From a virus (taxonomy: Duplodnaviria; Heunggongvirae; Uroviricota; Caudoviricetes), in the IMG/VR virus record IMGVR_UViG_2579778538_000006, positions 1 through 29,553 of that record: a stretch of DNA of 29,553 bases. The stretch is one strand, 5' to 3'. The notes under the pieces were generated by a model. It was not told the origin of the DNA and did not search any database. It was given only the letters and a program-made list of their open reading frames with translations. The position numbers were made by a program, and so were the translations under genes. Shown here piece by piece: positions 2,542-29,553 of the stretch (the first letter of the stretch is position 1; the number at the start of each line of letters is the position of its first letter).

Positions 2542-2766
2542 ATGCATACAGTTTCTGAAAATCAGTGCGGTAAATACGCATTACTGCTGCAACAGGCCAG
2601 AACCGAAGCACAGGCCGACGCAGCGACGCGCTTCTCTTCTCATCTTGACGCCATGATTCGCCACATCACAAAGGCGGAGTTATCCCGCGTGGAGATAGTC
2701 GAGCTGCTCAGTCAGGAGTCGGAAAAATTTCACAATATCGGATTATCTCGCGGGGAGGTGCTTTGA
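2542..2766 (+). CDS. Hypothetical early protein (orf80-position), 74 aa
   Basis: ORF with GGAGA Shine-Dalgarno 8 nt upstream of ATG 2542; stop overlaps next start (TGATG). Confidence 0.5.
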
Positions 2767-3068
2767 TGTCCTGTTCTCATTCAGTTGTATTACTGAATAA
2801 CGCCTTAAAAATCGCCGTTATGAAAAATGGCGATTTGTCTCTTATTCAACTTGGTCTTGATAAAGAAAAACGCGAAATAACTGAATCTGTTATCGCGATT
2901 TATCAGAACGAATTAAACCTCCTGTCTGATGTGGTCAATTTACTTGTGAAACGCGCTGTATTTAACAAGCAAATCTCCTCCGTGGATGAACTGACGAAAT
3001 TAACGACAGAAATCGCCAGCTATTGCGCTGATGAATTTAAGAAACTGAACGACAAAAGGAGCTGGTAA
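2763..3068 (+). CDS. Hypothetical early protein (orf81-position), 101 aa
   Basis: ORF translationally coupled on both sides (ATGA / TAATG overlaps); AAAGGAG RBS just upstream of the next gene. Confidence 0.5.
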
Positions 3069-3292
3069 TGCCGGACAACGTGGATTTTATTCAGGAACAA
3101 CAGGCTGAATTACTGGAGCGCCAGATTAACGCGGCAAGGGGGAAGCATTGCGGTGTTTCTGCGCTGGTTTGCGAAGAGTGTGACGCGCCAATACCTGCTG
3201 CCCGTCGTGCGGCTTATCCGTCAGCCACGCGTTGTGTTTCCTGTCAGTCAGTCTTTGAAGCAAAAAACAAACATTACCGGAGAACGGCATGA
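3068..3292 (+). CDS. DksA/TraR-family C4 zinc-finger protein, 74 aa
   Basis: CxxC-x17-CxxC motif (CEEC...CVSC) with the spacing typical of TraR/DksA zinc fingers; located in the early operon just upstream of A as in P2 (orf82 position). Confidence 0.75.
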   Translation: MPDNVDFIQEQQAELLERQINAARGKHCGVSALVCEECDAPIPAARRAAYPSATRCVSCQSVFEAKNKHYRRTA

Positions 3293-3564
3293 GTATTCGT
3301 ATTGAAATTGGCGAACGTTATGTCGTTACCAGTGACAGCTTTCAGTTTATTCTCCACGAGAAAAAGAGAGCGGAAAGCGGTAAAAACGCCGGTCAGGAAT
3401 GGCTGGCGGTGGTTGGTTATTACCCGAAATTAAGCCAGCTCGTTTCCGGCCTGATGCATCACGATATTCTGACCGGAAGCGCAAAATCTTTTGCTGATTT
3501 AAACGCGCAGGTTGAACAACTCAGCAAGCGTTGTTCAGAGGCTTTGGGCTCATATGGCCGTTAA
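3289..3564 (+). CDS. Hypothetical early protein (orf83-position), 91 aa
   Basis: ORF coupled to upstream gene (ATGA overlap); no recognisable motif. Confidence 0.5.
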   Translation: MSIRIEIGERYVVTSDSFQFILHEKKRAESGKNAGQEWLAVVGYYPKLSQLVSGLMHHDILTGSAKSFADLNAQVEQLSKRCSEALGSYGR

Positions 3565-5839
3565 AGCCTCCGGGCGTTTTGTCCCTCCGTCAGCATTTGC
3601 CGCAGGCACCGGTAAGATGTTTACCGGTGCTTATGCATGGAACGCGCCACGCGAGGCTGTCGGGCGCGAAAGACCCCTTACACGTGACGAGATGCGTCAG
3701 GTGCAAGGTGTTTTATCCACGATTAACCGCCTGCCTTACTTTTTGCGCTCGCTGTTTACTTCACGCTATGACTACATCCGGCGCAATAAAAGCCCGGTGC
3801 ACGGGTTTTATTTCCTCACATCCACTTTTCAGCGTCGTTTATGGCCGCGCATTGAGCGCGTGAATCAGCGCCATGAAATGAACACCGACGCGTCGTTGCT
3901 GTTTCTGGCAGAGCGCGACCACTATGCGCGCCTGCCTGGAATGAATGACAAGGAGCTGAAAAAGTTTGCTGCCCGTATTTCATCGCAGCTTTTCATGATG
4001 TATGAGGAACTCTGCGATGCCTGGGTGGATGCGCATGGCGAGAAAGAATCGCTGTTTACGGATGAGGCGCAGGCTCACCTCTATGGTCATGTTGCTGGCG
4101 CTGCACGTGCTTTCAATATTTCCCCGCTCTACTGGAAAAAATACCGTAAAGGACAGATGACCACGAGGCAGGCATATTCTGCCATTGCCCGCCTGTTTAA
4201 CGATGAGTGGTGGACTCATCAGCTTAAAGGCCAGCGTATGCGCTGGCATGAGGCGTTACTGATAGCTGTCGGGGAGGTCAATAAAGACCGTTCTCCTTAT
4301 GCCAGTAAACATGCCATTCGGGATGTGCGTGCACGCCGCCAGGCAAATCTGGAATTTCTTAAATCGTGTGACCTTGAAAACAGGGAAACAGGCGAGCGCA
4401 TCGACCTTATCAGTAAGGTGATGGGCAGTATTTCTAATCCAGAAATTCGCCGGATGGAGCTGATGAACACCATCGCCGGTATTGAGCGTTACGCCGCCGC
4501 AGAGGGTGATGTGGGGATGTTTATCACGCTGACCGCACCGTCAAAGTATCACCCGACACGTCAGGTCGGAAAAGGCGAAAGTAAAACCGTTCAGCTTAAT
4601 CACGGCTGGAACGATGAGGCATTTAATCCAAAGGATGCGCAGCGTTATCTCTGCCGTATCTGGAGCCTGATGCGCACGGCATTCAAGGATAATGATTTAC
4701 AGGCCTACGGTTTGCGTGTCGTCGAGCCACACCATGACGGAACGCCACACTGGCATATGATGCTTTTTTGTAATCCACGCCAGCGTAACCAGATTATCGA
4801 AATCATGCGTCGCTATGCGCTCAAAGAGGATGGCGACGAAAGAGGAGCCGCGCGAAACCGTTTTCAGGCAAAACATCTTAATCGGGGCGGTGCTGCGGGG
4901 TATATCGCGAAATACATCTCAAAAAATATCGACGGCTATGCACTGGATGGGCAGCTCGATAACGATACCGGTAAGCCGCTTAAAGATACTGCCGCGGCTG
5001 TTACCGCATGGGCGTCAACGTGGCGCATTCCGCAATTTAAAACGGTTGGCCTGCCGACAATGGGGGCTTACCGTGAACTACGCAAATTGCCTCGCGGCGT
5101 CAGCATTGCTGATGAGTTTGACGAGCGCGTCGAGGCTGCACGCGCCGCCGCAGACAGTGGTGATTTTGCGTTGTATATCAGCGCGCAGGGTGGGGCAAAT
5201 GTCCCGCGCGATTGTCAGACTGTCAGGGTCGCCCGTAGCCCGTCGGATGACGTTAACGAGTACGAGGAAGAAGTCGAGAGAGTGGTCGGCATTTACGCGC
5301 CGCATCTCGGCGCGCGTCATATTCATATCACCAGAACGACGGATTGGCGCATTGTACCGAAAGTTCCGGTCGTTGAGCCTTTGACTTTAAAAAGCGGCAT
5401 CGCCGCGCCTCGGAGTCCTGTCAATAACTGTGGAAAGCTCACCGGTGGTGATGCTTCGTTACCGGCTACCACACCTTCTGAGCACGCCGCAGCAGTGCTA
5501 AATCTGGTTGATGACGGTGTTATCGAATGGAGTGATCCGGAGGTCGTGAGGGCGCTCAGGGGCGCATTAAAACACGGCCTGAGAACACCAAATCGTCAGC
5601 AAAGAGCCGGAAGCCCGTTAAAACCGCATGAAATAGCGCCATCGGCCAGACTGACCCGGTCGGAACGAATGCAAATTACCCGTATCCGCGTTGACCTTGC
5701 TCAGAACGGTATCAGGCCGCAGCGATGGGAGCTTGAGGCGCTGGCGCGTGGCGCGACTGTAAATTATGACGGGAAAAAATTCACGTATCCGGTCGCTGAT
5801 GAGTGGCCGGGATTCTCAACAGTAATGGAGTGGAGATGA
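3554..5839 (+). CDS. A: Replication initiation protein A (rolling-circle HUH endonuclease), 761 aa
   Basis: HUH-type motif (PHWHMM) followed by a two-tyrosine active-site motif (YIAKYISKN) typical of rolling-circle initiators; start at ATG 3554 (GAGG RBS upstream) gives 761 aa, the length recalled for P2 A. ORF-track start 3512 is probably too early. Confidence 0.9.
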   Translation: MAVKASGRFVPPSAFAAGTGKMFTGAYAWNAPREAVGRERPLTRDEMRQVQGVLSTINRLPYFLRSLFTSRYDYIRRNKSPVHGFYFLTSTFQRRLWPRIERVNQRHEMNTDASLLFLAERDHYARLPGMNDKELKKFAARISSQLFMMYEELCDAWVDAHGEKESLFTDEAQAHLYGHVAGAARAFNISPLYWKKYRKGQMTTRQAYSAIARLFNDEWWTHQLKGQRMRWHEALLIAVGEVNKDRSPYASKHAIRDVRARRQANLEFLKSCDLENRETGERIDLISKVMGSISNPEIRRMELMNTIAGIERYAAAEGDVGMFITLTAPSKYHPTRQVGKGESKTVQLNHGWNDEAFNPKDAQRYLCRIWSLMRTAFKDNDLQAYGLRVVEPHHDGTPHWHMMLFCNPRQRNQIIEIMRRYALKEDGDERGAARNRFQAKHLNRGGAAGYIAKYISKNIDGYALDGQLDNDTGKPLKDTAAAVTAWASTWRIPQFKTVGLPTMGAYRELRKLPRGVSIADEFDERVEAARAAADSGDFALYISAQGGANVPRDCQTVRVARSPSDDVNEYEEEVERVVGIYAPHLGARHIHITRTTDWRIVPKVPVVEPLTLKSGIAAPRSPVNNCGKLTGGDASLPATTPSEHAAAVLNLVDDGVIEWSDPEVVRALRGALKHGLRTPNRQQRAGSPLKPHEIAPSARLTRSERMQITRIRVDLAQNGIRPQRWELEALARGATVNYDGKKFTYPVADEWPGFSTVMEWR

Positions 5840-6497: not shown

Positions 6498-6720
6498 AGA
6501 ACGCCGCCAGTCGTGAAACTTGTTTTCAGGGCTGGCGGGGTTGAACAACGAGCGAAGCGAGGCGTTAGTTGACAGACATATTTTTACTGCGTTGGTGCCG
6601 GTTTTTGACGGTTGAAAGGAGTTAGGTTGGAGAGCCAACAACTTACAAATATTCAAAAGTAAGCATCCTGTTGCTAACATGAGGTCGATTTTTTATGTGG
6701 ATGATGCAAAAAGGATAGCT

Positions 6721-7452
6721 ATGGATACTATAATCGCTTTTCTATCACTCGCTTTTTTCGTTGCTTTCTTCATCGGGTTAATCAAGCCATCACTGGTGCG
6801 AATGCCAAACCGCAAACGTGCAAGTGCGGTTTATCTCGGAGGAGGTTTTGTATTGAGCATAATTGGTTCAATACTCTATCCAACAGAAAAAAGCCAGCCA
6901 GTTGCTAAAACTGAAACATCAACCGTTGCAGAACACAAAGTCCAAAAAACATTCGAATATGGTGAAAAAACACTCAAGGAATATCGGAACGAGTCAAAGA
7001 AAACACGACACGATATTGTGAATAGTTACATTGATTTTAAGGAAGTTCCAGCCACCGCGTCAGATGCGTTTTATGCCTGCATGAGTGAGTATACATTTAC
7101 CAAAGATGATGAGTTGAAACTCGGTGATGTTCTTGGGTGGTGCTTTAATGATTATGAAAATGACCCGAATTCACTAAACAATAAAATCAATCTTGATACA
7201 TTTCAGAGTAATTTTAGTGGTTGGGATGGTTCTTATCGTCCATTGGAAAAACTAATTAAAGATAATATGAACGATGATTCATCTTATAAACATGTGTCAA
7301 CGGTATATCATTTGGTTTTGAATAAAGACCCGTACGCTATTGTGAAAACTACGTTTCGCGGTACTAATGCTTATGGTGGAGTGGTTAAGCAGACTATAGC
7401 TGCGCGCGTCGACATACGAACGGGAGAGGTTGTATCAATATTAGATAATTGA
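6721..7452 (+). CDS. Membrane-anchored hypothetical protein (two N-terminal hydrophobic segments), 243 aa; AT-rich cargo
   Basis: AAAGGA RBS upstream of ATG 6721; N-terminal hydrophobic helices (IIAFLSLAFFVAFFIGLI and AVYLGGGFVLSIIGSILY) followed by a hydrophilic domain; visibly AT-rich codon usage unlike the prophage backbone. Confidence 0.6.
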   Translation: MDTIIAFLSLAFFVAFFIGLIKPSLVRMPNRKRASAVYLGGGFVLSIIGSILYPTEKSQPVAKTETSTVAEHKVQKTFEYGEKTLKEYRNESKKTRHDIVNSYIDFKEVPATASDAFYACMSEYTFTKDDELKLGDVLGWCFNDYENDPNSLNNKINLDTFQSNFSGWDGSYRPLEKLIKDNMNDDSSYKHVSTVYHLVLNKDPYAIVKTTFRGTNAYGGVVKQTIAARVDIRTGEVVSILDN

Positions 7453-7517
7453 TTATAAGCAATGAGTGTTGAATGGTTTTCTGCACTCATATAAATATGA
7501 ATTTTTTAGGTGATGTA

Positions 7518-8453
7518 ATGGAATATCAACTGGATTTACAAGAGAATGCTATTGATAGTTTTAATGAAGCTTTAGCAAAGTATGAGTTAGGGCAGAGAGG
7601 AGAATTGCGGCAATATAAATTTGCTATCTTGCATTTGTCACATTTTCTTGAGCTGGTGTTGAAGTTATATATTGTTACAGTAGATGAAAATTTACTGTAT
7701 TCCGATTGCTATAAACAAATAGCTACAAGAGCAAAGCAAGAATCAATCAGTCTTTTAGACGCATATAATAAAATTATCGAGGATGGCGTTGATTTAGGAA
7801 GGTTCATTGAAGGGAAATCTAAGCCATATACGATAACCTTAGATCAGGCACTAAACTTTGCTAAGTGTGAGAAATGCGGCATAACTGGGGTTGATTTTGT
7901 AGATATTGATTTTTGTAATGATATAGCTTGGATAAAGAATTTAAGAAATGATATTGAGCATTATCAATTCAGACTTACTCCTAAAGACGCGCGCTTGTGT
8001 ATTGGACGCCTCGTCCGGGGGGTAGCTGAGTTTATTGATATCTTCGATCTTTTTAATCTTGAAGATGAAGTCGGTGCAGATAACTTACAGATATTTCAAA
8101 CTTTAGCTGATGAATACTCTCATCGGCTCTCTGAAGCCAAGAAAGAAGTTGAAGAAAGAGAGGCTGAAGCTTTTTATGGGGTTAGGCATAAATTTTATGA
8201 ATTGGTCGATTGGAAAGTTTATGAATGTCCTGAGTGTTCTAACGACACAATGATTCCCTCTGATGAGTCTTCTACGGGTTACAAATGCACTTTTTGTCAG
8301 AATGAAGATAGTGATGATATTGATGTTGCTTGCGATTGTTGTGGTGCGCAGGCTCCCAGCAGCGAAATGAGCATTTGGCCAATGGATGATGGTGATGTTG
8401 AGTATCGTTGTTACTACTGTTCAGGGCAGTATCAGGCAGATAAAGACTTTTAA
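7518..8453 (+). CDS. Hypothetical protein with HEPN-like R-N-x3-H motif and C-terminal Cys-rich zinc-ribbon-like tail, 311 aa; AT-rich cargo
   Basis: AGGTGA RBS upstream of ATG 7518; 'LRNDIEH' (Arg codon 7944-7946, His codon 7959-7961) matches the Rx4-6H HEPN signature; C-terminus has four CxxC pairs (CPEC, CTFC, CDCC, CYYC); AT-rich; follows the membrane ORF after 65 bp on the same strand. Confidence 0.6.
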   Translation: MEYQLDLQENAIDSFNEALAKYELGQRGELRQYKFAILHLSHFLELVLKLYIVTVDENLLYSDCYKQIATRAKQESISLLDAYNKIIEDGVDLGRFIEGKSKPYTITLDQALNFAKCEKCGITGVDFVDIDFCNDIAWIKNLRNDIEHYQFRLTPKDARLCIGRLVRGVAEFIDIFDLFNLEDEVGADNLQIFQTLADEYSHRLSEAKKEVEEREAEAFYGVRHKFYELVDWKVYECPECSNDTMIPSDESSTGYKCTFCQNEDSDDIDVACDCCGAQAPSSEMSIWPMDDGDVEYRCYYCSGQYQADKDF

Positions 8454-9882: not shown

Positions 9883-11654
9883 CAGTAAAACTCCAGAATG
9901 GTGGATGTCAGCGGGGTGCTGATACCGGCGGTGAGTGGCTCATTTAACAGGGCGTGCATGGTCGCCCAGGCGAGGTCGGCATGGCTGGCTTCCTCGCTGC
10001 GGCTGGCCTCATAGGTGGCGCTGCGTCCGCTGCTGGTCATGGTTTTGCGGATAGCCATGAACGAGCTGGTGATGTCGGTGGCGCTGACGTCATATTCCAG
10101 ACAGCCACGGCGGATAACGTCTTTTGCCTTGAGCACCATTGCGGTTTTCATTTCCGGCGTGTAGCGGATGTCGCGCGCGGCGGGATAGAACGAGCGCACG
10201 AGCTGGAACACGCCGACACCGAGGCCGGTGGCATCAATACCGATGTATTCGACGTTGTATTTTTCGGTGAGTTTGCGGATGGATTCCGCCTGGGTGGCAA
10301 AGTCCATGCCTTTCCACTGGTGACGCTCAAGTATTCTGAATTTGCCACCGGCCACCACCGGCGGTGCCAGCACCACGCATCCGGCGCTGTCGCCACGGTG
10401 TGACGGGTCGTAACCAATCCATACCGGGCGGGAGCCGAACGGATTGGTGGCAAACGGCGCATAGTCTTCCCATTCTTCCAGCGTGTCGACCATGCAGCGT
10501 TGCAGCTCCTCGAACGGGAACACCGACGCCTTGTCGTCAACAAATTCACACATGAACAGGTTTTTAAAATCGTCGGCGCTGTTTTCACGTTTGAGCTGCT
10601 CAATGTCGAACAGTGTGCAGCCGCCTTTCAGGGCGTCCTCAATGGTGACAATCTGCCGCCACTGGCCGTCTGCACAGAGAAGCCCACCGGCAAGGGCGTT
10701 ATGACTGACGTCGATTTCCACGCGTTCGGCGGCGCTGGCGCGTCCCCGGTTAAACAGTTCACCCGACCAGAACGGGTAGGCGTCGTGCGCCAGCGTGGAC
10801 GGGGTGGAGAAATAAGTCGAGCGCAGGTGACTTTGTGAGGCCATACCTGATGCCACCTTACGCAGTACCTGAAAATTCGGGATCCAGAAAATCTCGTCGA
10901 CGTACAGGTCGCCGTTATGGCTCTGTGCGGTGTTGGAGTTGGTGCCGAGAAAAATCAGTTTTGCGCCGTTATTGCCCAGGACAATCGGGTCACCGGTCAG
11001 GTCAACGTCAACCAGCCGGGCAAAGGCGATGATGTATTCGCGGAACACATACGCCTGCGTTTTACTGGCCGACAGAAAAATCTGGTTATGGCCGGTTTTC
11101 AGGGCGCGCAGCAGCGCCTCGCGGGAAAAATAAAACGTCGCGCCAATCTGGCGGGATTTCAGAATATCGCGGATGCGGTGCTCAAGCCCGGCGCGATACC
11201 AGTGCAACTGATATTCGAAAGACTGCTCAAAGAAAATCTGCTCCAGCTTTTCGATGGCCTCGTCACTGAAAAAATTCTTTTTCGGTTTGCGACGCCCGCC
11301 TTTGTTGCGGTTAGCGACGTTCGGATTAAGGTCTGCCTCGTTGCCGGTCTGACTGTAACGGTTTACCCGTGCCAGTCGTTCAATCTGGCGTCCCAGCAGG
11401 TCAATTTCCTTGAAGTCACCGCCGGTTTTCTGCGGTTTGATGATGAGCTGGGTCAGCCGCGCTTCCAGACTCATTTCGACACGGCTGATGGGGGCAACGC
11501 TGTCCCAGCCGTCGCGCTGTTTCCAGCTCTGCACCGTCGGGCGTTTCATCTGCAACATGGCGGCAATCTGCGGCACGGAAAACCCCTGCCAGTACAGCAG
11601 CGCCGCCTGACGACGCGGGTCGTGTAAAAGAGTGGTGTCTGTGGTGATGGTCAT
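9882..11654 (-). CDS. P: Terminase ATPase (large) subunit P, 590 aa
   Basis: 590 aa from internal ATG at 11654 (GAGGT RBS upstream), matching P2 P length; divergent from O; HTH-like N-terminus and large nuclease/ATPase body. Confidence 0.9.
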   Translation of the reverse strand: MTITTDTTLLHDPRRQAALLYWQGFSVPQIAAMLQMKRPTVQSWKQRDGWDSVAPISRVEMSLEARLTQLIIKPQKTGGDFKEIDLLGRQIERLARVNRYSQTGNEADLNPNVANRNKGGRRKPKKNFFSDEAIEKLEQIFFEQSFEYQLHWYRAGLEHRIRDILKSRQIGATFYFSREALLRALKTGHNQIFLSASKTQAYVFREYIIAFARLVDVDLTGDPIVLGNNGAKLIFLGTNSNTAQSHNGDLYVDEIFWIPNFQVLRKVASGMASQSHLRSTYFSTPSTLAHDAYPFWSGELFNRGRASAAERVEIDVSHNALAGGLLCADGQWRQIVTIEDALKGGCTLFDIEQLKRENSADDFKNLFMCEFVDDKASVFPFEELQRCMVDTLEEWEDYAPFATNPFGSRPVWIGYDPSHRGDSAGCVVLAPPVVAGGKFRILERHQWKGMDFATQAESIRKLTEKYNVEYIGIDATGLGVGVFQLVRSFYPAARDIRYTPEMKTAMVLKAKDVIRRGCLEYDVSATDITSSFMAIRKTMTSSGRSATYEASRSEEASHADLAWATMHALLNEPLTAGISTPLTSTILEFY

Positions 11655-11827
11655 GAATACCTCGCCGTGATGAATACACGGCAAGGCTACTGAGTCGCGC
11701 CCCGCGATTCGCTAAGGTGCTGTTGTGTCAGTGATAAGCCATCCGGGACTGATGGCGGAGGATGCGCATCGTCGGGAAACTGATGCCGACATGTGACTCC
11801 TCTAATCACTATTCAGGACTCCTGACA
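11655..11827. promoter_or_regulatory. Divergent late promoter region between P and O (expected Ogr/Delta-activated promoters)
   Basis: Intergenic between divergent Q-P and O-N-M-L operons as in P2; contains TGT-rich segment (gctgttgtgtcagtgataagcca) and inverted repeat CCATC..GATGG; exact activator site not assigned. Confidence 0.35.
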
Positions 11828-12688
11828 ATGGCAAAAAAAGTTTCAAAATTCTTTCGTATCGGCGTTGAGGGTGACACCTGTGACGGGCGTGTCATCAGTG
11901 CGCAGGATATTCAGGAAATGGCCGAAACCTTTGACCCGCGAGTCTATGGTTGCCGCATTAACCTGGAACATCTGCGCGGCATCCTGCCTGACGGTATTTT
12001 TAAACGTTATGGCGATGTGGCCGAACTGAAGGCCGAAAAGATTGACGATGATTCGGCGCTGAAAGGCAAATGGGCGCTGTTTGCGAAAATCACCCCGACC
12101 GATGACCTTATCGCGATGAACAAGGCCGCGCAGAAGGTCTACACCTCAATGGAAATTCAGCCGAACTTTGCCAACACCGGCAAATGTTATCTGGTGGGGC
12201 TGGCCGTCACCGATGACCCGGCAAGCCTCGGTACGGAATACCTGGAATTCTGCCGCACGGCAAAACACAACCCCCTGAACCGCTTCAAATTAAGCCCTGA
12301 AAACCTGATTTCAGTGGCAACGCCCGTTGAGCTGGAATTTGAAGACCTGCCTGAAACCGTGTTCACCGCCCTGACCGAAAAGGTGAAATCCATTTTTGGC
12401 CGCAAACAGGCCAGCGATGACGCCCGTCTGAATGACGTGCATGAAGCGGTGACCGCTGTTGCTGAACATGTGCAGGAAAAACTGAGCGCCACTGAGCAGC
12501 GCCTCGCTGAGATGGAAACCGCCTTTTCCGCACTTAAGCAGGATGTGACTGACAGGGCGGATGAAACCAGCCAGGCATTCACCCGCCTGAAAGACAGTCT
12601 CGACAGCACCGAAAGTCTGACCCAGCAGCGCCGCAGCAAGGCCACCGGCGGTGGCGGTGGCGGTGACGCCCTGATGACGAACTGCTGA
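11828..12688 (+). CDS. O: Capsid scaffolding protein O, 286 aa
   Basis: Position after P; start at MAKKVSKFF gives about the P2 O size (284 aa); coiled-coil-like C-terminal half and Gly-rich tail. Confidence 0.85.
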   Translation: MAKKVSKFFRIGVEGDTCDGRVISAQDIQEMAETFDPRVYGCRINLEHLRGILPDGIFKRYGDVAELKAEKIDDDSALKGKWALFAKITPTDDLIAMNKAAQKVYTSMEIQPNFANTGKCYLVGLAVTDDPASLGTEYLEFCRTAKHNPLNRFKLSPENLISVATPVELEFEDLPETVFTALTEKVKSIFGRKQASDDARLNDVHEAVTAVAEHVQEKLSATEQRLAEMETAFSALKQDVTDRADETSQAFTRLKDSLDSTESLTQQRRSKATGGGGGGDALMTNC

Positions 12689-12741
12689 CCGGCGTCAGTC
12701 CGGGAAACCTTCACGATTAACCCTTAATTTCAGGAAAAACT

Positions 12742-13815
12742 ATGCGCCAGGAAACCCGCTTTAAATTTAATGCCTACCTGTCCCGTGTTGCCGAACTGAA
12801 CGGCATCGACGCCGGTGATGTGTCGAAAAAATTCACCGTTGAACCGTCGGTCACCCAGACCCTGATGAACACCATGCAGGAGTCCTCTGACTTTCTGACC
12901 CGCATCAACATTGTGCCGGTCAGCGAAATGAAAGGGGAAAAAATTGGTATTGGTGTCACCGGCTCCATCGCCAGCACCACCGACACCGCCGGTGGCACCG
13001 AGCGTCAGCCGAAGGACTTCTCGAAGCTGGCGTCAAACAAGTACGAATGCGACCAGATTAACTTCGATTTTTATATCCGCTACAAAACGCTTGACCTGTG
13101 GGCGCGTTATCAGGATTTCCAGCTCCGTATCCGTAACGCCATTATCAAACGCCAGTCCCTTGATTTCATCATGGCCGGTTTTAACGGCGTGAAGCGTGCC
13201 GAAACCTCTGACCGCAGCAGCAATCCGATGTTGCAGGATGTGGCGGTCGGCTGGCTGCAGAAATACCGCAATGAAGCCCCGGCGCGCGTGATGAGCAAGG
13301 TCACTGACGAGGAAGGCCGCACCACCTCTGAGGTTATCCGCGTGGGTAAGGGCGGTGATTATGCCAGCCTTGATGCACTGGTGATGGATGCGACCAACAA
13401 CCTGATTGAGCCGTGGTATCAGGAAGACCCTGACCTTGTGGTGATTGTGGGACGTCAGCTACTGGCGGACAAGTATTTCCCCATCGTCAACAAGGAGCAG
13501 GACAACAGCGAAATGCTGGCCGCTGACGTCATCATCAGCCAGAAACGCATCGGTAATCTGCCGGCGGTACGCGTTCCGTACTTCCCGGCGGATGCGATGC
13601 TCATCACGAAGCTGGAAAACCTGTCCATCTACTACATGGATGACAGCCATCGCCGCGTGATTGAGGAAAACCCGAAACTCGACCGCGTGGAGAACTACGA
13701 GTCAATGAACATTGATTACGTGGTGGAAGACTACGCCGCTGGTTGTCTGGTGGAAAAAATTAAGGTCGGTGATTTCTCCACACCGGCTAAAGCGACCGCA
13801 GAGCCGGGAGCGTAA
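12742..13815 (+). CDS. N: Major capsid protein N, 357 aa
   Basis: 357 aa as in P2 N; follows scaffold gene. Confidence 0.9.
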   Translation: MRQETRFKFNAYLSRVAELNGIDAGDVSKKFTVEPSVTQTLMNTMQESSDFLTRINIVPVSEMKGEKIGIGVTGSIASTTDTAGGTERQPKDFSKLASNKYECDQINFDFYIRYKTLDLWARYQDFQLRIRNAIIKRQSLDFIMAGFNGVKRAETSDRSSNPMLQDVAVGWLQKYRNEAPARVMSKVTDEEGRTTSEVIRVGKGGDYASLDALVMDATNNLIEPWYQEDPDLVVIVGRQLLADKYFPIVNKEQDNSEMLAADVIISQKRIGNLPAVRVPYFPADAMLITKLENLSIYYMDDSHRRVIEENPKLDRVENYESMNIDYVVEDYAAGCLVEKIKVGDFSTPAKATAEPGA

Positions 13816-24176: not shown

Positions 24177-24704
24177 ATGGACTGGAAAGATCTTGCATCA
24201 ACCGCTGTGTATACAGGTATGACTGATGAAAATGAAAACATATGGGAACGTGTTGATGGGGTTGACGTTGCCTTCATAGGTGCCTTTCTTACTGCGCACT
24301 TGAGCCTTGAAAAGTATATTACTGATTATCTTGGATTAAGATATCCTTCGTTAGCTTGGGGTGATGCAAAACTCACATTTTCACAAAAAATAGCTTTAAT
24401 ACAACATGAGCCTGCAAAACCCCCTTATGATGAAATATATTTAAGAATAAAAGACTTTAACAGCATAAGAAATAAAATCAGTCATCAATTGAATTATCAG
24501 ATTACGGATAAAGAAAAAAGTAAGTTTGTGGACTTCTACATGAAGATTACTAAAGCCAGTAAAACTAAACCAAATATTGATATTGATAACATGGCAGATT
24601 TGTTGGATTTTTTCGTGTCGATGACAAAATCCTATTTTGCTAGTGCTATTTCTTATTATCACTGTAATAAAAAGGTTGCAGGTAAAAGTAATAAAATTGA
24701 TTAA
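24177..24704 (+). CDS. Hypothetical protein with HEPN-like R-N-x3-H motif, 175 aa; AT-rich cargo in the G-FI (Z/fun) slot
   Basis: AT-rich ORF with A-rich RBS region; 'IRNKISH' (Arg codon 24468-24470, His codon 24483-24485) matches Rx4-6H; preceded by a roughly 390-bp AT-rich non-coding stretch (23788-24176). Confidence 0.6.
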   Translation: MDWKDLASTAVYTGMTDENENIWERVDGVDVAFIGAFLTAHLSLEKYITDYLGLRYPSLAWGDAKLTFSQKIALIQHEPAKPPYDEIYLRIKDFNSIRNKISHQLNYQITDKEKSKFVDFYMKITKASKTKPNIDIDNMADLLDFFVSMTKSYFASAISYYHCNKKVAGKSNKID

Positions 24705-25002: not shown

Positions 25003-26193
25003 ATGAGTGACTATCATCACGGCGTGCAGGTGCTGGAGATTAACGAGGGCACCCGCGTCATTTCCACTGTATCCACGGCCATTGTCGGCATGGTCTGCAC
25101 GGCCAGCGATGCGGATGCGGAAACCTTCCCCCTCAATAAACCTGTGCTGATTACCAATGTGCAGACCGCAATTGCAAAGGCCGGTAAAAAAGGCACGCTG
25201 GCGGCATCGTTGCAGGCCATCGCCGACCAGTCAAAACCGGTCACCGTTGTCGTGCGTGTGGAAGACGGCACCGGCGACGACGAGGAAACGAAACTTGCGC
25301 AAACCGTTTCCAATATCATCGGCACCACCGACGAAAACGGTCAGTACACCGGACTGAAAGCTCTGCTGGCGGCGGAGTCGGTAACCGGTGTTAAACCGCG
25401 CATTCTCGGTGTGCCGGGACTGGACACCAAAGAGGTTGCCGTCGCACTGGCATCAGTCTGTCAGAAGCTGCGCGCTTTCGGGTATATCAGCGCATGGGGC
25501 TGTAAGACCATTTCCGAGGTGAAAGCCTACCGCCAGAATTTCAGCCAGCGTGAGCTGATGGTCATCTGGCCGGATTTCCTCGCATGGGATACGGTCGCCA
25601 GTACCACCGCCACCGCGTATGCCACCGCCCGTGCGCTGGGGCTGCGTGCCAGGATCGACCAGGAGCAGGGCTGGCATAAAACGCTGTCCAATGTCGGGGT
25701 GAACGGTGTTACCGGCATCAGCGCATCTGTATTCTGGGATTTGCAGGAGTCCGGCACCGATGCTGACCTGCTTAACGAGTCAGGCGTTACTACGCTGATT
25801 CGCCGTGACGGTTTCCGCTTCTGGGGTAACCGTACCTGCTCTGATGACCCGCTGTTCCTCTTTGAAAACTACACCCGCACAGCGCAGGTGTTGGCCGACA
25901 CGATGGCTGAGGCGCACATGTGGGCGGTGGACAAACCCATCACCGCAACGCTGATTCGCGACATCGTTGACGGCATCAATGCCAAATTCCGTGAGCTGAA
26001 AACAAACGGCTATATCGTGGATGCGACCTGCTGGTTCAGCGAAGAATCCAACGATGCGGAAACCCTCAAGGCCGGAAAACTGTATATCGACTACGACTAT
26101 ACCCCGGTGCCTCCTCTTGAAAACCTGACCCTGCGCCAGCGTATTACTGATAAATACCTGGCAAATCTGGTCACCTCGGTTAACAGCAATTAA
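25003..26193 (+). CDS. FI: Contractile tail sheath protein FI, 396 aa
   Basis: 396 aa as in P2 FI; GGAG RBS at 24991-24994; followed by tube gene. Confidence 0.9.
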   Translation: MSDYHHGVQVLEINEGTRVISTVSTAIVGMVCTASDADAETFPLNKPVLITNVQTAIAKAGKKGTLAASLQAIADQSKPVTVVVRVEDGTGDDEETKLAQTVSNIIGTTDENGQYTGLKALLAAESVTGVKPRILGVPGLDTKEVAVALASVCQKLRAFGYISAWGCKTISEVKAYRQNFSQRELMVIWPDFLAWDTVASTTATAYATARALGLRARIDQEQGWHKTLSNVGVNGVTGISASVFWDLQESGTDADLLNESGVTTLIRRDGFRFWGNRTCSDDPLFLFENYTRTAQVLADTMAEAHMWAVDKPITATLIRDIVDGINAKFRELKTNGYIVDATCWFSEESNDAETLKAGKLYIDYDYTPVPPLENLTLRQRITDKYLANLVTSVNSN

Positions 26194-26205: not shown

Positions 26206-26724
26206 ATGGCAATGCCGCGCAAACTCAAATACATGAATGTCTTTCTGAACGGTTACAGCTATCAGGGCGTTGCAAAGTCCGTCACGCTGCCAAAACTGAC
26301 CCGTAAGCTCGAAAACTATCGCGGTGCGGGGATGAACGGCAGCGCACCGGTAGACCTCGGCCTTGATGACGATGCGCTGTCAATGGAGTGGTCGCTTGGG
26401 GGCTTCCCGGATTCGGTTATCTGGGAGCTTTACGCTGCAACCAGTGCTGATGCCGTACCGATTCGTTTTGCTGGTTCTTACCAGCGCGACGATACCGGCG
26501 AAACGGTGGCCGTCGAAGTGGTCATGCGTGGGCGTCAGAAAGAAGTCGACACCGGAGAGGGTAAACAGGGAGAGGATACCGAATCGAAACTCCCGGTGAT
26601 TTGTACTTATTTCAAGCTGACGATGGACGGTAAGGAGCTGGTCGAAATCGACACCATCAACATGATTGAGAAGGTGAACGGCGTCGACCGGCTGGAGCAA
26701 CACCGCCGCAATATCGGCCTGTGA
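26206..26724 (+). CDS. FII: Tail tube protein FII, 172 aa
   Basis: 172 aa as in P2 FII. Confidence 0.9.
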   Translation: MAMPRKLKYMNVFLNGYSYQGVAKSVTLPKLTRKLENYRGAGMNGSAPVDLGLDDDALSMEWSLGGFPDSVIWELYAATSADAVPIRFAGSYQRDDTGETVAVEVVMRGRQKEVDTGEGKQGEDTESKLPVICTYFKLTMDGKELVEIDTINMIEKVNGVDRLEQHRRNIGL

Positions 26725-26780
26725 TTTTCATCCGGTCAGCCTGGCTGACCGGTTAACCCCGATTCAGAAGTGAGAAAACC

Positions 26781-27056
26781 ATGAACAAAGAAAATGTCAT
26801 TACCCTGGACAATCCGGTCAAACGTGGTGAGCAGGTTATCGAACAGGTCACGCTGATGAAACCCAATGCGGGGACGCTGCGCGGTGTCAGTCTGGCTGCG
26901 GTTGCAAACTCCGAAGTCGATGCACTGATTAAGGTGCTGCCGCGCATGACGGCACCGATGCTGACCGAGCAGGAGGTCGCCGCGCTGGAACTGCCTGACC
27001 TTGTGGCGCTGGCCGGTAAGGTGGTCGGTTTTTTGTCGCCGAACTCGGTGCAGTGA
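26781..27056 (+). CDS. E: Tail assembly chaperone E, 91 aa
   Basis: 91 aa as in P2 E; located between tube and tape-measure genes; contains slippery heptamer near its 3' end. Confidence 0.8.
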   Translation: MNKENVITLDNPVKRGEQVIEQVTLMKPNAGTLRGVSLAAVANSEVDALIKVLPRMTAPMLTEQEVAALELPDLVALAGKVVGFLSPNSVQ

Positions 27057-27208
27057 CGTTCCCGAAAAATCTCTCGGTCGATGACCTGATGGCGGATGTG
27101 GCAGTGATATTTCACTGGCCGCCATCAGAACTGTATCCCATGAGCCTGACCGAACTCATCACATGGCGCGAAAAGGCGCTCCGGCGAAGCGGAAACACGA
27201 ATGAGTAA
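27035..27208 (+). CDS. E': E' extension reached by programmed -1 frameshift (E+E' fusion chaperone, about 142 aa total)
   Basis: Slippery heptamer T_TTT_TTG at 27029-27035 in E frame; the -1 frame is open from there to TAA at 27206-27208, overlapping the T start; fused length matches my recollection of P2 E+E'. Confidence 0.65.
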   Translation, partial: VAELGAVTFPKNLSVDDLMADVAVIFHWPPSELYPMSLTELITWREKALRRSGNTNE

Positions 27209-28436
27209 CAATGTAAAATTACAGGTATTGCTCAGGGCTGTTGACCAGGCATCCCGCCCGTTTAAATCCATCCGCACAGCGAGCAAGTCGCTGTCGGGGG
27301 ATATCCGGGAAACACAAAAATCACTGCGCGAGCTGAACGGTCACGCATCCCGTATTGAGGGATTCCGCAAGACCAGTGCACAGCTCGCCGTGACTGGTCA
27401 GGAACTGAAAAAAGCCAGACAGGAAGCCGCAGCTCTGGCAGTCCAGTTTAAAAATACTGAACGACCGACAAATGCACAGGCAAAGGCAATGGAAGCCGCG
27501 CGTAAAAATGCGTCTGAGTTACAGGCGAAATATAACAGCCTGAGATTGTCGGTACAGCGCCAGCGTCAGGAATTGAGTCAGACGGGTATTAATACCCGCA
27601 ATCTTGCACATGATGAGCAGGGACTGAAAAACCGTATCAGTGAAACCACCGCACAGCTTAACCGTCAGCGCGACGCGCTGGCGCGTGTCAGTGCGCAACA
27701 GGCAAAACTTAACGCAGTAAAACAGCGTTATCAGGCAGGCAAGGAACTGGCCGGAAATATGGCCTCAGTGGGCGCTGCCGGTGTGGGGATTGCTGCTGCG
27801 GGAACGATGGCCGGAGTTAAGCTGCTGATGCCCGGTTATGAGTTTGCGCAGAAAAACTCAGAATTGCAGGCCGTGCTAGGTGTGGCAAAAGACTCCGCCG
27901 AAATGGCCGCGCTCCGCAAGCAGGCGCGCCAGCTCGGCGATAATACCGCCGCCTCGGCAGATGATGCAGCAGCAGCTCAAATCATCGTGGCTAAATCGGG
28001 AGCGGATAAAAATGGCATCCTGGCACAAACACCGGCCATTTTGAATATGTCACTGGCAAACAAGAAAACGATGGAGGAAAACGCCACTTTACTTATTGGG
28101 ACAAAATCGGCATTCGGGCTTGCTGACGATAAGGCTTCCCATATTGCTGATGTTATTTCAATGACGATGAATAAATCGCAAGCCACATTCGAGGGACTAA
28201 GTGATTCACTTACCTATGTCGGGCCAGTGGCAAAAGATGCAGGTGTCAGCCTGGAAGAAACAGCAGCAATGTTAGGTGCATTACACGATGCAAATATCAG
28301 TGGGTCTATGGCTGGCACAGGAAGTCGAGCAGTACTGAGTCGTTTGCAGGCACCAACCGGGAAAGCGTATGACGCTATTAAAGAGCTTGGCGTAAAGACA
28401 ACTGACAGCAAAGGTAATACGTGCGTATTTTCATGA
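27201..28436 (+). pseudogene. T: Tail tape measure protein T, 3'-truncated (411 aa remaining) by IS insertion
   Basis: Alpha-helical, Ala/Gln-rich N-terminal half typical of tape-measure proteins; reading frame ends abruptly at 28436 where IS21-family terminal repeats begin; P2 T is recalled as about 815 aa. Confidence 0.8.
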
Positions 28437-28439
28437 AAG

Positions 28440-28550
28440 GAGATCACTCAATAACTTCCATCGAGATCGGGTAATAACATTTGAACAGATCGCTGAATAA
28501 CATCGATGGAGATCACTTTTGACTCATTTTGTTATTCAGTGATCTCCATC
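28440..28550. repeat. IS21-family terminal multiple repeats (three copies of GGAGATCACT / AGTGATCTCC)
   Basis: Copies at 28440-28449, 28510-28519 and inverted at 28541-28550; additional ATAACATCGATGGAGATCAC / GTGATCTCCATCAATGTTAT inverted pair. Confidence 0.7.
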
Positions 28551-28614
28551 AATGTTATTGGAACTTCACAGGTGTGTTGATCTGTATCTTTTGCCATTCC
28601 GGTAAAGGATACCT

Positions 28615-29553
28615 ATGCCAACAGTTCCAATTTCTATGAGAAAACTTAAAGAAATTCTTAGGCTTAAATACGGTGTTGGACTCAGCCATCGACAAATTGG
28701 TCGTAGTCTTGCAATCTCCCCTTCCGTTGTATCCAGATATGCTAATCGGGCGGCTCAACTTGGCATAAAGCAGTGGCCCTTACCTACAGGATGGGATGAT
28801 ACAAAACTAAAACATGCGTTCCTTCAGACCCAGGTTAAGATGAAGAAGCACTCTCTGCCTGACTGGGCTACAGTACACCGGGAACTGCGTAATAAATGCG
28901 TGACGCTGCAGCTACTCTGGGAAGAATACTGTGAGCGTAATCCAGGCGGTTTTTACAGCTATAACCATTACTGCCGGATGTACCGTGAATGGCTCAAAAC
29001 CACTTCACCATCAATGCGTCAGGTACATAAAGCTGGCGAAAAACTTTTCGTTGATTACTGTGGACCTACCGTTGGCGTTACCGACCCTGAGACCGGAGAA
29101 ATAAGAACTGCTCAGGTCATCGTAGCTGTTCTCGGGGCATCAAGTTACACATGGGCAGAGGCCACCTGGTCTCAGCAGCTTGAAGACTGGGTGATGAGTC
29201 ATGTTCGCTGCTTCCAGTGGTTGGGTGGCGTTCCTGAACTTGTTGTTCCGGACAATCTGAAAAGCGCCACATCCAGGGCATGTAAGTATGATCCTGACGT
29301 TAACCCTACCTACCAGCAGATGCTTGAGCATTATAATGTCGCAGTTTTGCCTGCGCGGCCACGTAAACCGAAAGATAAAGCCAAAGCTGAAGTTGGCGTT
29401 CAGGTTGTTGAACGCTGGATCATGGCCCGAATCAGGCATGAGATCTTCTACAGCCTTGCATCGCTTAATCAGCGCATTCGGGAGTTGCTGGAAAGACTGA
29501 ATAACAAAATAATGCAGAAGTTGGGTTATTCACGTGCAGAACTCTTCATCCAG
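28615..29553 (+). CDS. istA: IS21-family transposase IstA (5' partial; no stop within window)
   Basis: Frame open from ATG 28615 to window end (313 codons, translated by hand); N-terminal HTH (LKEILRLKYGVGLSHRQIGRSLAIS) and DDE-type core (FVDYCGP...VPDN...) typical of IstA; AAAGGA RBS upstream. Not in the ORF track because it lacks a stop in the window. Confidence 0.85.
   Translation, partial: MPTVPISMRKLKEILRLKYGVGLSHRQIGRSLAISPSVVSRYANRAAQLGIKQWPLPTGWDDTKLKHAFLQTQVKMKKHSLPDWATVHRELRNKCVTLQLLWEEYCERNPGGFYSYNHYCRMYREWLKTTSPSMRQVHKAGEKLFVDYCGPTVGVTDPETGEIRTAQVIVAVLGASSYTWAEATWSQQLEDWVMSHVRCFQWLGGVPELVVPDNLKSATSRACKYDPDVNPTYQQMLEHYNVAVLPARPRKPKDKAKAEVGVQVVERWIMARIRHEIFYSLASLNQRIRELLERLNNKIMQKLGYSRAELFIQ

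Follow-up and report, generated by a model that had tools for sequence, protein, structure and literature searches.

The stretch of DNA analysed here (the window, 29,553 nucleotides) is a P2-like (Peduovirus) prophage. Bases 1-25000 align with P2-like phages at 95-97% identity, the matches covering 83-86% of their length, and the gene order, set by the open reading frames (ORFs) together with Pfam, runs integrase, replication gene A, Q, P, O, N, M, L ... H, G, FI, FII, E, T, with the identities of FI, FII, E, E' and T all confirmed by Pfam. The sheath gene FI (25003-26193; identified by Pfam) is followed on the plus strand by the tail tube gene FII (26206-26724), a 172-aa ORF that matches PF04985 (Phage_tube, E=1.7e-60), aligns with P2 gpFII and is the 5' neighbour of the tail assembly chaperone pair. 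The morphogenesis ORFs of the window other than T are all open, and their lengths are presumably in keeping with those of P2. An Rfam search of the window found no family.

Gene E, the slippery heptamer and the E' frame

Gene E (26781-27056, plus strand) is a 91-aa ORF for the 0-frame tail assembly chaperone, with PF10109 (Phage_TAC_7) covering residues 7-85. Near its 3' end lies the slippery heptamer T_TTT_TTG (27029-27035, plus strand), around which the sequence reads ...GGTAAGGTGGTCGGTTTTTTGTCGCCGAACTCGGTGCAGTGACG... and the 0-frame codons are GGT (27027-29), TTT (27030-32) and TTG (27033-35), i.e. in the X_XXY_YYZ phase. The initial annotation had proposed that this is the programmed -1 frameshift site of an E/E' tail chaperone pair, and most of its reading of the letters is confirmed: the heptamer is in phase with the 91-codon ORF of E; it stands nine codons before the stop, its first T being in codon 83 and the TGA at 27054-56 being codon 92; and the -1 frame, E' (27035-27208, plus strand), translates from G27035 to VAELGAVTFPKNLSVDDLMADVAVIFHWPPSELYPMSLTELITWREKALRRSGNTNE, 57 sense codons, before it ends with the TAA at 27206-27208. 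The statement that this TAA overlaps the start codon of T was mistaken, as the ATG of T occupies 27201-27203 and the TAA comes 3 nt after the start codon; the two ORFs overlap by 8 nt (ATGAGTAA).

The conceptual E+E' fusion has 142 aa and consists of residues 1-85 of E and the 57-codon extension. Both of its halves are matched by PHROG tail families, and two Pfam matches lie above the curated cut-offs, PF10109 (tail assembly chaperone E/41/14) in the 0-frame part and PF06528 (Phage_P2_GpE, E=1.2e-21) on residues 104-139, i.e. in the -1 frame. A phmmer search of E+E' against PDB sequences gave no match, and an AlphaFold model of the fusion, itself poor (pLDDT 62.7), found nothing in the PDB at E<=0.001 with Foldseek. 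Two minus-strand ORFs at the locus (26736-27125 and 26753-27115) showed no sign of coding, and where relatives vary across E, they do so at third positions of the plus-strand frame.

On its own the heptamer shows no significant excess in the window, where TTTTTTG occurs 14 times compared with 8.95 +/- 3.07 copies expected from shuffles. Its presence alone could plausibly be due to chance, but its arrangement close to a stop codon and ahead of a long extension is unusual: a count over 28 window genes gives 23 in-phase X_XXY_YYZ heptamers, of which only the one at 27029-27035 lies within 10 codons of the stop of its own gene, and it has the longest -1 extension. A functionless coincidence of a heptamer with an open -1 frame, which would agree with the lack of over-representation, is at odds with this unique arrangement and with the existence of a Pfam family specific to the -1 frame; it is also contradicted by comparative data, since the heptamer is kept at the nucleotide level across clades with only about 40% protein identity. 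We consider its probability negligible.

Identity of the site with that of phage P2

Bases 26700-27300 share 98.8% identity with phage P2, and in a pairwise alignment the segment 27014-27060, comprising the heptamer and approximately 15-25 nt on each side, is the same base for base. E differs from P2 gpE in a single residue (N29 for S29), four further base changes inside E/E' alter neither protein, the amino-acid sequence of E' is identical to that of P2 E', and the E+E' fusion is 99% identical to gpE+E' of phage Wphi. At the corresponding place, the P2 GenBank record (AF063097) carries a CDS for E ('essential tail protein'), a joined CDS for E+E' ('shares amino terminus with gpE; -1 frameshift; essential tail protein') and a misc_feature ('site of -1 translational frameshift') whose coordinates coincide with the heptamer after correction for the offset. 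The prophage thus has the same genes, heptamer, flanks, product lengths (91 and 142 aa) and overlap with T as P2, and differs from it in that the downstream T is interrupted by the insertion sequence ISEc12. It belongs to the P2 type in that the 0-frame and the -1 parts are homologous to P2 E and E', respectively, an in-phase T_TTT_TTG stands near the 3' end of E, the -1 ORF reaches the start of T, and E/E' stands in the F operon with the tail tube gene FII before it and the tape-measure gene T after it.

The programmed -1 frameshift giving P2 gpE and gpE+E' was reportedly described by Christie, Temple, Bartlett & Goodwin (2002, J Bacteriol 184:6522). In P2, a -1 shift at TTTTTTG yields the 91-aa E and the 142-aa E+E' from a site that has no downstream hairpin (PMC3091744); in two reviews, the fusion is described as being made in vivo by the -1 shift (~10%), with E' essential for tails (PMC3091744, PMC5009743).

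We therefore assign a probability of roughly 95% to the reading that the heptamer serves as a programmed -1 ribosomal frameshift site of a P2-type tail assembly chaperone gene. Judged by its sequence, the stretch 27029-27035 is the known and experimentally proven frameshift site of P2 gene E, retained unchanged in a P2-like prophage. The E/E'-type chaperone frameshift suggested in the initial annotation is in this respect upheld by the Pfam identities of the genes and the near-identity to the annotated P2 site, and the sequence holds nothing that speaks against it. The main finding is accordingly the re-identification of a textbook recoding site in a near-P2 prophage copy; it adds nothing new and is of low interest because the feature is already known in P2.

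Proposed mechanism

Most ribosomes would read E (26781-27056) to its TGA and release the 91-aa gpE. A minority would slip back by one base on U_UUU_UUG while the P site holds tRNA-Phe on UUU and UUG stands in the A site, continue with GUC at 27035 and read 57 codons to the TAA at 27206-08, the product being the predicted 142-aa gpE+E', whose first 85 residues are common with gpE. Public annotations of the fusion differ at residue 85 (L or F), with GFLV in Wphi and GFFV in PGAP entries, because the slippage sub-mechanism has two candidate forms: GFLV corresponds to tandem slippage of both tRNAs, and GFFV to a slip of the P-site tRNA-Phe only, after which UUU is read in the -1 frame. Homology with P2 suggests that gpE and gpE+E' would both be needed for the tail to be assembled around the tape-measure protein T. 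If the analogy with lambda gpG/gpGT holds, the E part common to both products may bind T, and the E' part may recruit the tube protein FII.

The comparison with lambda, made in the initial annotation by calling the arrangement G/GT-like, stands for the architecture and fails for the sequences. As shown by the ORFs, Pfam and the heptamer survey, E/E' belongs to the same architectural class: in both phages two overlapping ORFs lie between a major tail gene and the tape-measure gene, and ribosomes that slip by -1 at a slippery site late in the first ORF make a fusion as the minor product. No sequence relationship to lambda gpG/gpT was found, a Pfam scan of E+E' at E<=0.01 giving only PF10109 and PF06528, and the prophage pair is hence comparable to G/GT in how it works and is not its sequence homologue. 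The two systems also differ in the heptamer, said to be G_GGA_AAG in lambda (Levin et al. 1993), unlike the T_TTT_TTG found here, in the efficiency, which is reported to be 2-3 fold higher in P2 than in lambda, and in the tail, which is contractile in the P2 type, with a sheath and a tube. A conserved frameshift in the tail chaperone genes of long-tailed phages has reportedly been described by Levin (1993) and by Xu, Hendrix & Duda (2004, 2013, 2014). In lambda, the G part binds the tape measure and the T part the tube protein, the products are made at a ratio of approximately 30:1, and neither is found in the virion (PMC5009743).

Conservation in relatives and the expression of E'

A tblastn search with the fusion retrieved 418 phage records, 401 of them covering at least 80% of the query; among the matches listed with at least this coverage, all 57 of 57 match as two pieces, i.e. 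with a frame change between E and E'. We compared 18 regions, namely P2 and 17 others from 16 further host genera (including Yersinia, Klebsiella, Salmonella, Burkholderia, Stenotrophomonas, Pseudomonas, Halomonas, Arsenophonus, Aeromonas, Vibrio, Acidovorax and Mannheimia; a Ralstonia phage region was left out). Each of the 18 carries a slippery heptamer in phase and, after it, a -1 extension of 52-71 codons with a conserved ADIAxIFHW...WRE motif. The heptamer is TTTTTTG in 13 of the 18 (12 of the 17 besides P2) and TTTTTTT, TTTTTTC, AAATTTT (Xuanwuvirus P88) or GGGAAAG (Mannheimia PHL101) in the others, and conservation of the heptamer at the nucleotide level extends to relatives with just 37-57% identity in the E+E' protein. 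The frameshift is annotated in the records of the relatives 186, Milagro, Smp131 and KS5 themselves. Their pairs (orf51/orf52 (H) in phage 186) share the heptamer and the architecture with the prophage E/E', from which they differ by an identity of 57-74% over the matched E+E' stretch and by a longer N terminus of E (103-116 aa).

Larger samples of 80 loci each were obtained with two narrow E' alignments. An in-phase T6N heptamer is present in 79 of the 80 enterobacterial species-level genomes (76 with TTTTTTG) and in 78 of the 80 Burkholderia-type viral contigs (71 with TTTTTTG). The lone enterobacterial exception, Enterobacter sp. EA-1 (CP025776.1; locus position ~895), has T5 in place of T6, and E and E' are thereby fused in frame. 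Several public 141-aa 'fusion' proteins, one of them with the junction GF-VAELG, may be of the same T5 kind; such proteins are either hard-wired fusions or products of homopolymer sequencing errors.

In the source record, as in many others, E' is set apart as a gene of 39-51 aa, so that the present finding is of some use for annotation. If these annotations were right, E' would be a separate small gene with its own start at GTG 27053 (51 aa) or ATG 27089 (39 aa), and the heptamer would be irrelevant. An ORF finder indeed gives 27053-27208 as a 51-aa ORF starting with GTG, both the gene caller of the source contig and PGAP call a separate 'GpE family' gene, and the ATG before the ADxA motif is kept in 73 of 76 enterobacterial and 70 of 72 Burkholderia-type sequences. 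We rejected an independent start, as canonical Shine-Dalgarno cores are missing from the interval 5-14 nt ahead of every candidate -1-frame start in all 76 enterobacterial sequences. Furthermore, the Met of ATG 27089 is replaced by V, E, W or I in phages of Klebsiella, Arsenophonus, Vibrio, Acidovorax and Mannheimia, and in nearly every relative the approximately 18 codons from the heptamer to this Met are open and the heptamer is in phase, neither of which an independent start needs. As E+E' of P2 is, moreover, annotated and reported as a frameshift fusion, a separate E' gene seems to us very improbable.

The frame change could also be made by RNA polymerase, through transcriptional realignment on the T6 run, rather than by the ribosome. 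The site is a homopolymer of six T, and a hairpin at 27008-27029 followed by the T run had been flagged as terminator-like. Productive transcriptional slippage in bacteria takes place on runs of about nine A or T (PMC5009743), for which six is short; the homologous heptamers AAATTTT and GGGAAAG fit re-pairing of tRNAs and not polymerase slippage; and the seventh base, G, is kept in 76 of 80 enterobacterial and 71 of 80 Burkholderia-type loci. The G-U-rich 5' hairpin with its T6 run (-10.5 kcal/mol) was rejected as a feature of the locus, as it can form in only 12 of 77 relatives, and it is probably fortuitous. The chance that polymerase slippage accounts for the frame change appears slimmer still than that of a separate E' gene.

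RNA context of the heptamer

Downstream RNA structure would play no part in the slip. No downstream stimulator was found in folds of 80 nt (z=-0.58) and 171 nt (z=-1.87), RNAalifold on 14 diverse relatives gave 0 consensus pairs downstream of the heptamer, and we rejected such an element on these grounds, in line with the report on P2 (PMC3091744). A small hairpin, CGCCG/CGGUG, beginning 2 nt past the heptamer was likewise discarded, being possible in only 21 of 77 relatives and too close to the site. U_UU.U_UU.G is absent from the list of motifs found efficient in reporter assays in E. coli (PMC4066793), so an efficiency of about 10% would need some further context, and a stimulator would make sense.

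A candidate 5' stimulator is the Shine-Dalgarno-like AGGTGGTC at 27019-27026 (plus strand), pointed to by its predicted duplex with the anti-Shine-Dalgarno sequence and by conservation at synonymous sites. It can form an 8-bp duplex with the 3' end of 16S rRNA (-12.8 kcal/mol), the strongest such site in E/E', and its affinity ranks among the highest 0.23% for intragenic 12-mers in the window. The codons on the 5' side of the heptamer are AAG GTG GTC (K-V-V), the conserved bases spelling AGGUG(GUC). An AGGKG located within an interval of 6-17 nt defines a stimulatory class (PMC4066793); from AGGTG (27019-27023) to the motif's second base (27030) the gap is exactly 6 nt, which places the element in this class at its short limit.

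Conservation of the element exceeds what the protein needs, strongly in the enterobacterial sequences and more weakly in a second clade, these statistics being only in part corrected for phylogeny. In 78 distinct enterobacterial sequences (mean pairwise distance 0.25), the Lys codon is AAG in 64 of 65 cases, with one inferred synonymous change, and the Val codon is GTG in 74 of 78, with four. The 47 other well-conserved codons of E have undergone 6-24 synonymous changes each, the two other Lys columns prefer AAA (11 and 18 changes), and constraint equal to that of AAG and GTG is seen only at the codons of the heptamer. A Shine-Dalgarno-like element is present in the interval in 62 of 66 distinct enterobacterial contexts, as against 23.0 +/- 3.7 expected from synonymous resampling and a background of 11% in the rest of these genes. 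In the Burkholderia-type clade it occurs in 47 of 62 contexts (background 10%), where 41.0 +/- 2.3 are expected and the amino-acid sequence thus explains most of its presence. The elements of this clade, typically GGGGG or GGAGG 13-14 nt upstream of the heptamer, use the Gly codons GGG and GGA, which are rare elsewhere in those genes. Some of the more distant relatives are without any Shine-Dalgarno-like element. A 4-bp stem GGUG:CRCC bracketing the heptamer can form in 68 of 77 relatives (-3.3 kcal/mol), shows no covariation and has a dual-coding 3' arm; it is unlikely to be the cause of the synonymous constraint.

We tentatively propose, at somewhat under even odds, that AGGUGGUC (27019-27026) pairs with the 3' end of 16S rRNA while UUU and UUG are in the P and A sites and thereby stimulates the -1 slip. 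Internal elements complementary to the anti-Shine-Dalgarno sequence also lie 5' of the X_XXY_YYZ heptamers of E. coli dnaX and IS911; unlike these, the prophage has no stem-loop or pseudoknot downstream, and its spacing is at the short limit. One review, citing Christie et al. (2002), gives the frameshift efficiency in P2 and its relatives as 2-3 fold that of lambda (PMC5009743). Pairing with rRNA, if it takes place, would explain how U_UUU_UUG attains this level without downstream structure, and would give a further component to a signal so far held to be free of stimulators. The literature searched, with Christie et al. (2002) outside it, contained no mention of the element as a stimulator, and it may be an unreported one.

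Disruption of the tape-measure gene by ISEc12

The tape-measure gene T, which overlaps the end of E', is represented on the plus strand by its 5' half (27201-28421, 407 codons; PF10145). Its homology to P2-like T stops at 28421, and at 28422 begins the left part of an insertion sequence of the IS21 family, ISEc12 (28422-29553, plus strand), with istA and an rve domain; the IS copy that it matches at 100% is annotated as 'IS21-like element ISEc12 family transposase'. The T ORF (27201-28436) runs on through 4 IS-encoded codons to give a product of 411 aa. This interruption of T, 1.2 kb downstream, had escaped the initial annotation. The window ends at an N-gap of the source scaffold inside the IS. 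In this scaffold (KK736448.1, assembly GCA_000692675.1) the IS is followed by the rest of T, U, D and ogr, and past ogr by host genes matching the Pfam families Cation_efflux, PFK and SBP_bac. The ISEc12 locus spans 10222-13060 of the region extracted from it. The junction seen in the source contig reveals a 5-bp target duplication, ATACG, flanking the insertion, and removal of the IS with one copy of ATACG restores a T ORF of 815 aa.

The predicted frameshift cassette is intact here, but T is split, and the chaperone pair is for this reason probably without a usable client, if T is indeed the client, as we infer from the analogy with lambda. With T disrupted, the frameshift site may no longer be functional in this genome, and the prophage is probably unable to make tails. 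The insertion itself is probably recent.

A second insertion of ISEc12 was seen in E. coli Esc31 (NZ_OZ369368.1; locus 2557-5177), 26 nt past the heptamer and right behind the stop of E (at about 27061 in window coordinates). In the Esc31 genome E is intact and the predicted E+E' is destroyed, a natural knock-out of E'. Other complete E. coli genomes with the same three-piece match may carry the same insertion, Esc31 being the only one inspected. ISEc12 has thus hit the module twice, in T here and in E' elsewhere, providing natural knock-outs of T and of E+E'; this double hit and the comparative evidence for the Shine-Dalgarno-like element are each of modest value.

Other elements of the prophage

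Between FII and E lies an intergenic hairpin, CCGGTCAGC-CTG-GCTGACCGG (26732-26752, plus strand), with a perfect stem of 9 bp and a fold of -18.8 kcal/mol (z=-3.09). It is the counterpart, in the same place and with a similar sequence, of an element that the record of phage 186 labels 'tI; partial terminator of pJ transcript', and it probably lowers the expression of E, T, U and D relative to that of the sheath and the tube.

An AT-rich cargo ORF of 175 aa (24177-24704, 32-35% GC) is located between the tail-fibre assembly gene G and FI, in the slot where P2 has Z/fun; Pfam and PADLOC gave no match for it, and among PHROGs it hits phrog_5483 (unknown function). The slot between replication gene A and portal gene Q is a site of variable cargo genes in P2-like phages. 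Here it contains, at 6679-8453, two ORFs of 257 and 326 aa without a Pfam match, the latter with a weak, partial match (E=2e-17) to the PADLOC candidate defence family PDC-S64.
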